A stretch of 951 nt of DNA from the sequence record OP745096.1. One strand, 5' to 3'. The notes under the pieces were generated by a model. The model was not told the origin of the DNA. It saw nothing but the letters and a program-made list of their open reading frames with translations, and did no database searches. This document shows, in pieces, positions 1 to 951 of the stretch; position 1 is the stretch's first letter, and the number at the start of each line of letters is the position of its first letter. The position numbers and the translations under genes were made by a program. This stretch comes from a phage.

Positions 1-951
1 ATGACCACCCTGTGGACCGAAAAATATCGCCCGCAGAGCATGGAAGATTATGTGAGCAAAAACGATGCGCTGCGCCAGAAAATGGAAGAATGGATTAAAA
101 CCGGCGATATTCCGCATATTGGCTTTTTTGGCCCGGCGGGCACCGGCAAAACCAGCGCGATTAAAGTGCTGATTAACGGCCTGGTGCAGAACGGCCATCT
201 GGATCCGAGCGATGTGACCACCCTGAACATGAGCGATGAAGGCATTGATGCGGTGCGCGATAAAATTGATGCGGCGGCGAAACTGAGCTGCTTTGGCCGC
301 TATCGCATTTTTGTGCTGGAAGAAATGGAACAGATGAACCATAAAGCGCAGGGCAGCCTGAAACGCGTGATGGAAGATTATCATGAAAACGCGCGCTTTA
401 TTCTGACCAGCAACGAACCGCATAAAATTCAGAAACCGATTATTAGCCGCGTGCAGGTGATTACCATTGAAAAACATGATATGGAACAGTTTATGACCCG
501 CATTTATAACATTCTGCTGGCGGAAGGCGTGGATCTGAGCAGCGATGATAGCGTGGAACAGGTGCAGAAATATATTAACGCGAGCTATCCGGATTTTCGC
601 AAAACCCTGAACGTGCTGCAGAGCAGCGTGGTGGATGGCAAACTGGTGAAACTGGAAGATAGCATTGAAAACAGCGCGGGCTATCGCACCGCGATTGTGG
701 AAGCGCTGAAAGCGGGCAACATTCGCCAGATGCGCGAACAGATTGTGCAGAACATTCCGGATGATGAAATGGATGCGTTTTTTAGCTATCTGTATCGCAA
801 CGCGGAAATGTTTAGCACCGATGAAATTACCCTGATGAAAATTAAAGTGAAAATTCGCGATGCGGTGGTGAAACAGGCGACCGTGAGCGATCGCGAAATG
901 AACCTGAGCGCGCTGCTGTGCGAAATTGATCTGATTTGCAGCGGCAACATG
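1..951 (+). CDS. Sliding-clamp loader AAA+ ATPase subunit (RFC small subunit / phage T4 gp44-like); 3' end open, no stop codon in window
   Basis: Frame 1 is open across all 317 codons from ATG at nt 1. The hand translation begins MTTLWTEKYRPQSMEDYVSK... and contains, in canonical order and spacing, WTEKYRP, GPAGTGKTS (Walker A), LNMSDEGIDAVR (RFC box), IFVLEE (Walker B-like), LTSN (sensor 1), SRV (SRC-like arginine finger) and PDFRKTLNVLQS (sensor 2). The ~317+ aa length matches the ~320 aa typical of gp44 and RFC small subunits. The family assignment rests on remembered motif knowledge, not a database search. Confidence 0.9.
   Translation, partial: MTTLWTEKYRPQSMEDYVSKNDALRQKMEEWIKTGDIPHIGFFGPAGTGKTSAIKVLINGLVQNGHLDPSDVTTLNMSDEGIDAVRDKIDAAAKLSCFGRYRIFVLEEMEQMNHKAQGSLKRVMEDYHENARFILTSNEPHKIQKPIISRVQVITIEKHDMEQFMTRIYNILLAEGVDLSSDDSVEQVQKYINASYPDFRKTLNVLQSSVVDGKLVKLEDSIENSAGYRTAIVEALKAGNIRQMREQIVQNIPDDEMDAFFSYLYRNAEMFSTDEITLMKIKVKIRDAVVKQATVSDREMNLSALLCEIDLICSGNM
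13..33 (+). other. N-terminal W-x-EKYRP clamp-loader signature (residues W5-P11)
   Basis: Translated WTEKYRP. The EKYRP box is the conserved N-terminal motif (RFC box II) of RFC subunits, T4 gp44 and bacterial gamma/tau. Confidence 0.8.
130..153 (+). other. Walker A / P-loop GPAGTGKT (residues G44-T51)
   Basis: Codons ggc ccg gcg ggc acc ggc aaa acc give GPAGTGKT, which fits the GxxxxGK[TS] consensus and closely resembles RFC GPPGTGKT. Confidence 0.9.
223..258 (+). other. RFC box IV-like motif LNMSDEGIDAVR (residues L75-R86)
   Basis: Matches the clamp-loader motif LN-[AG]-SD-x-(R)GID-x-[VI]R located between Walker A and Walker B. Confidence 0.75.
307..324 (+). other. Walker B variant IFVLEE (residues I103-E108), hhhhEE instead of hhhhDE
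   Basis: A hydrophobic beta-strand followed by two acidic residues at the expected distance from Walker A. It aligns to RFC FLDEAD and gp44 VIDEFD, but the first acidic residue is Glu rather than Asp. Confidence 0.7.
403..414 (+). other. Sensor 1 region LTSN (residues L135-N138)
   Basis: The hydrophobic strand FILTSN ending in a polar Thr/Ser-Asn corresponds to the sensor-1 position in RFC (ILSCN) and gp44 (ITANN). Confidence 0.65.
445..453 (+). other. SRC-like motif S-R-V with the putative arginine finger (residues S149-V151)
   Basis: The PIISRVQVI context matches RFC PIQSRCAIF and gp44 PLQSRCRVI. Arg150 is retained and the Cys is replaced by Val. Confidence 0.7.
589..624 (+). other. Sensor 2 helix in the lid domain PDFRKTLNVLQS (residues P197-S208)
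   Basis: Resembles RFC small-subunit GDMRRAxNxLQ and gp44 FPDFRKTIGELD; Arg200 is the likely sensor-2 arginine. Confidence 0.7.

Follow-up and report, generated by a model that had tools for sequence, protein, structure and literature searches.

A 951-nucleotide phage window is very probably an in silico back-translation of gp60, a predicted T4 gp44/RFC-type clamp-loader ATPase of the 121Q jumbo phage group

Reading frame and codon usage of the window

The stretch of phage DNA analyzed here (the window; 951 nucleotides at its full length) is taken up from its first base to its last by a single plus-strand reading frame, and the complete protein that it encodes is known as gp60 in Escherichia phage 121Q. 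Frame 1 opens with ATG and runs through 317 sense codons, with no stop codon either inside it or at its end. Along the encoded protein lie an N-terminal box, the Walker, sensor, and arginine-finger motifs, and a C-terminal domain, all of which are collected in Table 1 together with an open frame on the opposite strand. The conservation of the motifs was assessed by aligning the protein with as many as 43 homologues, reaching down to 39% identity, and with one T4-type gp44.

Table 1. Features of the window, given as nucleotide positions in the window, with residue numbers (aa) of the encoded protein
Feature	Positions	Strand	Remarks
Back-translated coding sequence	1..951	+	317 codons, ATG start, without stop; full-length predicted clamp-loader ATPase gp60, YP_009101654.1
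LWTEKYRP (aa 4-11), N-terminal RFC box II-type motif	10..33	+	L4, W5, R10, and P11 invariant or nearly so
Walker A/P-loop GPAGTGKT (aa 44-51)	130..153	+	G44, G47, G49, and K50 invariant in 43 homologues
Walker B FVLEE (aa 104-108)	310..324	+	Catalytic Glu108 invariant; the usual Asp is Glu107
Sensor 1 LTSN (aa 135-138)	403..414	+	T136 and N138 invariant
ISRVQ (aa 148-152), SRC-type arginine finger, here SRV	442..456	+	S149 and R150 invariant; aligns with SRC of RFC and gp44
Sensor 2 PDFRKTLN (aa 197-204), lid domain	589..612	+	P197, D198, and R200 invariant
C-terminal five-helix bundle (aa ~224-317), predicted collar/oligomerization domain	670..951	+	AF2 model, Foldseek
Antisense open frame, an artefact and not a gene	1..951	-	0 stops over 317 codons

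An earlier note on this DNA had described it as using one codon per amino acid and had read it as a deterministic back-translation made with a table of the most frequent E. coli codons. Tabulation of the codons in frame 1 bears out both parts of that description. Exactly 20 distinct codons occur over the 317 positions, one for each amino acid, and no amino acid has two; the set (GCG, CGC, AAC, GAT, TGC, CAG, GAA, GGC, CAT, ATT, CTG, AAA, ATG, TTT, CCG, AGC, ACC, TGG, TAT, and GTG) is identical to the one listed in the note. All 20 are the top synonymous choice in an approximate codon usage table of E. coli K-12. For a protein of this composition, the probability that each of the 18 degenerate amino acids would be encoded by a single codon is ∼1e-91 if codons are drawn at approximate E. 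coli frequencies and ∼1e-140 if all synonyms are equally likely; the single-codon pattern of the window is far beyond chance.

When the 20-codon table is applied to the native gp60 of 121Q, it gives the window exactly, base for base, and the DNA can thus be regenerated mechanically from a known protein. In having one preferred E. coli codon per amino acid, in ending without a stop codon or flanks, and in being regenerated by a table, the window is the same as a deterministic reverse translation and differs from one in nothing; by every criterion tested it is an artificial sequence of this kind. The table that lies behind it may be, for example, the E. coli default that common "reverse translate" utilities supply.

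The native gene and the origin of the window DNA

A search with the translated protein had been proposed as the route to the native locus, and it recovered that locus at once. With tblastn, the window protein is matched along its whole length (residues 1-317) at 100% identity by 22 phage records, and each of these is a ∼350-kb jumbo myovirus of E. coli or Salmonella that belongs to the 121Q/PBECO4 group (genus Asteriusvirus), with 121Q, PBECO4, phAPEC6, SP27, and Sharanji among them. In the RefSeq genome of 121Q (NC_025447.1), the native gene is PBI_121Q_60, at 45868-46821, and its product (gp60, YP_009101654.1) carries the label [quoted passage not shown] The native coding sequence has 954 nucleotides, that is, 317 codons and a TAA stop, and it encodes a protein identical to that of the window.

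Although the two are the same in all 317 amino acids, they differ in their DNA, in the number of codons they use, in GC content, and in what surrounds the coding sequence. The native gene draws on 53 distinct sense codons against 20 in the window, and it has a GC content of 36.7% against 49.4% and a GC3 of 0.26 against 0.61. The DNA identity between them is 77.7%, with 186 of the 317 codons differing and every difference synonymous. The TAA of the native gene overlaps the ATG of the next gene (TAATG), and a Shine-Dalgarno-like region (AAGGAAAT) lies upstream of it; neither feature is in the window. Since a native gene with normal, AT-rich codon usage exists, only the protein is informative, and the DNA of the window is artificial.

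The view that nucleotide-level signals in this DNA are artefacts likewise held. Frame -1 contains no stop codon in the window, whereas the native gene has 14 in the same frame. It is open in the window because TTA, CTA, and TCA are unused, so that no codon reads as a stop in reverse complement, and the full-length antisense frame is present in the window only. The diversity of k-mers is also lowered, with 656 distinct hexamers in the window against 753 in the native gene. In the window, GC content and codon adaptation are meaningless, as are its repeats, its promoter-like or RBS-like strings, and the 317-codon antisense open reading frame; all of these should be discarded.

We found no native nucleotide match with identical DNA, the result that the earlier note had named as evidence against its reading, in any of the six collections searched. 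Among phages (megablast and blastn), the best match has 77-79% identity and is the native gene itself. Megablast against plasmids and against 5,426 complete E. coli genomes gave no match to the window, nor did an exact 48-mer scan of viral, GTDB-genome, and metagenome contigs.

These results bear on two other accounts of the DNA. It might be a natural gene whose codon bias is extreme, for instance one that is adapted to E. coli and expressed at a very high level, and its intact reading frame and uniformly E. coli-preferred codons are what such a gene could offer. However, even with E. coli codon preferences, single-codon usage of this kind has a probability of ∼1e-91, the phage's own gene for this same protein has 53 codons and a GC3 of 0.26, identical DNA is absent from every collection searched, and the window equals a mechanical back-translation exactly; a natural origin is so improbable that we treat it as negligible.

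The use of one host-preferred codon per residue is also a recognized, if crude, optimization strategy, and the host implied by the codon table is the host of the phage, both of which would suit a physically synthesized, codon-optimized E. coli expression construct of "one amino acid, one codon" design. Against this, the window consists of exactly 317 sense codons and lacks a stop, any tag or linker, a cloning site, and vector flanks, and it has no match among plasmid or vector records. Practical optimizers, moreover, tend to mix synonymous codons so as to keep out repeats and strong secondary structure, and a single codon per amino acid is unlike their usual output. We consider a construct very unlikely, and whether the DNA is a construct or an in silico string, its nucleotide-level signals are artificial either way.

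With high confidence, then, we read the window as an in silico reverse translation of the complete 317-residue gp60, a T4 gp44/RFC-type AAA+ clamp-loader ATPase of the 121Q group. The DNA of the window is without biological meaning, and the protein that it encodes is already known and annotated. The main value of the finding is one of quality control: either its protein or positions 45868-46821 of NC_025447.1 should stand in for the window.

Family, motifs, and predicted fold of gp60

Profile and sequence searches consistently associate gp60 with clamp loaders. The PHROG_168 profile ("clamp loader of DNA polymerase") matches it over its full length at 1.1e-78, the Pfam family DNA_pol3_delta2 (PF13177) scores 48.7 bits against a cutoff of 27, and Pfam AAA is also above its curated cutoff; Pfam Gp44_lid gives a weak match to residues 161-208 (E = 3.6e-4) that falls under the gathering score. 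Sequence matches in the PDB comprise archaeal and eukaryotic RFC small subunits (4e-31), T4 gp44 (4e-19), and bacterial gamma/tau (2e-11). The AF2 model of gp60 (pLDDT 86.9) combines an ATPase domain of alpha/beta type with a helical lid and a C-terminal five-helix bundle, the helices of which are predicted at residues 225-237, 241-251, 254-266, 275-291, and 298-314. In Foldseek searches, this model matches at full length both RFC subunits (E = 3.5e-19; TM 0.70) and T4 gp44 (E = 1.1e-16; TM 0.65).

T4 gp44 (PDB 3u5z and 8uh7) and gp60 share a three-domain AAA+ fold, and the Walker A motif, the catalytic Glu, sensor 1, the Ser-Arg finger, and sensor 2 of the two proteins align. Their identity is, however, only ∼27%, and Walker B reads IDE in T4 and LEE in gp60. 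The best matches of gp60 in both sequence and fold are RFC small subunits (PDB 2chq and 1iqp; yeast Rfc2-5 and human RFC2-5), which have the LWxEKYRP box at the N terminus and an SRC-type motif in common with it. Unlike these subunits, gp60 is phage-encoded, falls under the cutoff of the RFC equivalog, and comes from a phage in which no RFC-large-subunit paralogue is detectable. The equivalog in question, the NCBIfam model of the archaeal RFC small subunit (NF001679), gives gp60 165.4 bits against a cutoff of 303, and because its score is under that cutoff, we do not regard gp60 as an orthologue of archaeal RFC-S.

The form of Walker B varies by group: all homologues with at least 40% identity have LEE, the motif of T4-type gp44 reads IVIDEFD, and that of distant homologues reads LLDEAD. 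Judged from the sequence, the change of the Walker B Asp to Glu107 appears to be conservative. With this caveat, gp60 has the defining features, in its motifs and in its predicted fold, of an AAA+ clamp-loader ATPase of the T4 gp44/RFC-small-subunit type.

Some GenBank records describe the identical protein otherwise, as "dnaX: DNA polymerase III subunit tau" in slurp01 and Sharanji and as "putative peptidase" in CRJP21, and the distant similarity to gamma/tau (2e-11 in the PDB) could be taken to favor a bacterial-type DnaX (DNA polymerase III tau/gamma). The NCBIfam model dnaX_nterm (TIGR02397) nevertheless scores gp60 at 78.6 bits against a cutoff of 250, and the matches to RFC (4e-31), gp44 (4e-19), and PHROG_168 (1e-78) are far stronger than that to gamma/tau. 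The top Foldseek matches are all RFC or gp44 subunits, and no peptidase family was matched in the Pfam search. It is extremely unlikely that gp60 is a DnaX or a peptidase, and the labels "dnaX / tau," "putative peptidase," and "hypothetical protein" on the identical protein are misannotations or under-annotations.

The native locus and candidate partners of gp60

The replication set of 121Q is T4-like and includes a gp43-like polymerase, a gp41-like helicase, a primase, an SSB, UvsX/Y/W-like proteins, RNase H, and topoisomerase II, similar to the T4 set with its gp43, gp41, gp32, UvsX/Y/W, and primase. Whereas T4-type loci have the gene order 45-44-62, gp60 of 121Q lies outside such an operon and is flanked by unrelated genes, and no adjacent gp62-type gene of a 45-44-62 cluster was found at its locus. 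Upstream of it are a truncated Pol III alpha-like protein (gp56), a GroES-like protein (gp58), and small proteins of unknown function. Downstream, the gene for gp61 overlaps that for gp60; we considered gp61 as a gp62-type small subunit and ruled it out, as it is a HAD/NT5C nucleotidase. The products gp55, gp57, gp59, and gp62 to gp65 of 121Q, considered as a clamp or small subunit, gave no Pfam signal and fall in PHROGs of unknown function or of virion proteins.

Wider searches of the 121Q genome were also negative for both partners. Ten hypothetical proteins of the replication module, compared with Pfam at E values up to 1, gave no clamp or gp62 signal, and the sole weak hit among them was a match of gp16 to a Pol III alpha finger. 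T4-type gp45 and gp62, used as phmmer queries against the open reading frames of 1-99 kb and 318-348 kb (129 kb), returned nothing significant, and a clamp-loader family HMM run on the open reading frames of the same regions returned gp60 itself only. No second RFC-like paralogue was found in the 121Q record, where tblastn gives a single RFC-like place. No clamp is annotated in 121Q, and neither Pfam nor phmmer, the latter run over 1-99 kb and 318-348 kb, detected one from sequence. The genome papers of RaK2 (PMC3622015) and CBB (PMC5259590) report that homologues of gp45 and gp62 are not detectable in this phage group. Iyer et al. 2021 (PMC7824862) describe "group 2" jumbo phages as typically carrying an ATPase of the RFC family, a small subunit that is helical, and a clamp of the PCNA superfamily, and they give group 2.2 a minimal Pol III alpha that is split; gp16 and gp56 of 121Q together are consistent with the latter.

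Well outside the window, at 344995-345726, 121Q encodes gp613, a 243-residue "hypothetical protein" of PHROG_12062 (unknown function). Its gene is located two genes downstream of that for the gp43-like polymerase (gp610) and not beside the loader gene. Between the polymerase and gp613 lies gp612, a 98-residue protein with a weak match to RuvB_N, which makes it a first candidate for a possible fifth subunit of the loader. Only 30 homologues of gp613 are detectable, at least 4 of which, to judge from contigs of equal length, appear to share a contig with a gp60 homologue. Sequence searches for a clamp (Pfam, phmmer against the PDB, and BLASTP against gp45) were negative for gp613, with an E value of 5.8 for T4-type gp45. 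A structural model of a 90%-identical family member (pLDDT 92.9; pTM 0.89) has PCNA at all of its top 50 fold matches in the PDB (E = 2.6e-10; TM 0.71-0.75; full length), and its fold matches in BFVD are named phage sliding clamps and viral PCNAs. With its predicted PCNA/gp45-type fold, gp613 is a strong candidate for the clamp loaded by gp60.

In the solved RFC and T4 complexes, subunits joined by a collar form a spiral that holds ATP at its interfaces, opens the clamp, docks onto primer-template DNA, hydrolyzes ATP, and releases. From these complexes we infer how gp60 may assemble, load a clamp, and choose its partner. By analogy, several copies of gp60 would form a spiral held together by their C-terminal collar domains, and this would take up ATP at the subunit interfaces, where Walker A and Walker B of one subunit meet the arginine finger of its neighbor. 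Such a spiral would open a ring-shaped sliding clamp and set it on primer-template DNA, with ATP hydrolysis and then release to follow, and the loaded clamp would potentially confer processivity on the gp43-type DNA polymerase of the phage. The clamp in this scheme would likely be the phage's own gp613, as its modeled fold suggests.

With a single RFC-like gene detected in 121Q and no gp62 homologue found, gp60 might act as a homo-oligomer. A homo-oligomeric loader that dispenses with a gp62/RFC-large fifth subunit, has Glu for Asp in Walker B, and loads a highly divergent PCNA-like gp613 encoded beside the polymerase is a possibility that we regard as unlikely, and if true it would concern the native phage and not the window. 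More likely than such a loader is that one of the 121Q proteins annotated as hypothetical is a small helical subunit of divergent sequence, in line with the helical small subunit that such phages typically possess (PMC7824862). As for the clamp, which the two genome papers reported as missing, the 121Q/RaK2-like jumbo phages probably do encode one, in the form of gp613.

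An antisense open frame created by codon choice

The stretch is open from end to end in frame -1, in which the native gene has 14 stops. The sole cause is that the reverse complements of all 20 codons used are non-stop, and the comparison bears out the earlier note in treating antisense reading frames here as artefacts: the codon set by itself accounts for the difference. Any ORF caller would output a spurious 317-aa antisense ORF from this sequence.

Labels and motif of the clamp-loader ATPase

GenBank labels disagree among phage records that carry an identical protein (H5, H7, H12, H13 and H14-H17), with "dnaX: DNA polymerase III subunit tau," "putative peptidase," "rfc: ATPase AAA," and "hypothetical protein" all in use. 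Profile scores lend no support to either the DnaX or the peptidase label. A 98%-identical protein (P0001) is deposited under "AAA family ATPase [Escherichia coli]," an entry that probably reflects jumbo-phage DNA inside a bacterial assembly. The identical protein also occurs in "Escherichia phage IA-38" (PQ691273.1), a record of just 93,967 bp that is therefore probably a partial genome.

The Glu-for-Asp substitution in Walker B is common to the clamp-loader ATPase and all homologues of at least about 40% identity, and the catalytic Glu108 is invariant. At this site the protein reads LEE, in contrast to the IDE of T4-type gp44 and the LDE seen in more distant relatives.

Candidate partners in the 121Q genome

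Features of the window and of Escherichia phage 121Q (L001, L003 and L005 are stretches of NC_025447.1)
Feature	Coordinates	Strand	Remarks
Antisense open frame	window 1-951	minus, frame -1	no stop across 317 codons
Walker B, FVLEE	window 310-324 (aa 104-108)		Glu in place of canonical Asp
gp56, short ORF	L001:4390-4908		NTPase domain match, bacterial DNA polymerase III alpha, 1.9e-9
HAD/NT5C-type nucleotidase gene	L001:6954-7580	+	overlaps clamp-loader stop (TAATG)
gp16, short ORF	L003:13282-13920		weak match, finger domain of bacterial DNA polymerase III alpha, E 0.045
gp612, 98-aa hypothetical protein	L005:26596-26892	+
gp613 (YP_009102200.1), 243 aa	L005:26995-27726 = NC_025447.1 344995-345726	+	candidate clamp

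A single RFC-like gene was detectable in the whole 121Q genome by tblastn, and phmmer and HMM scans of 1-99 kb and 318-348 kb found no gp62-type small clamp-loader subunit. The nucleotidase gene is annotated "phosphoglycolate phosphatase." A candidate accessory or small subunit is gp612, which is encoded between the polymerase and gp613 and matches PHROG_25089 and, weakly, Pfam RuvB_N (AAA+ P-loop domain; E 0.015).

The gp16 and gp56 ORFs lie far apart and match different parts of DNA polymerase III alpha. This arrangement fits the report by Iyer et al. 2021 (PMC7824862) that group 2.2 jumbo phages have a minimal Pol III alpha in split form.

Two genes downstream of a gp43-like DNA polymerase, gp613 is annotated "hypothetical protein," belongs to PHROG_12062 (unknown function) and matched no Pfam or PDB sequences. 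Its predicted fold, modeled on a 90%-identical family member, is a PCNA/gp45-type two-domain sliding clamp (pLDDT 92.9, pTM 0.89), and a Foldseek search of the PDB with the predicted structure gave an E value of 2.6e-10 and TM scores up to 0.75. The genome papers on RaK2 (PMC3622015) and CBB (PMC5259590) reported the clamp as missing; on the structural prediction, gp613 is a candidate for that clamp.
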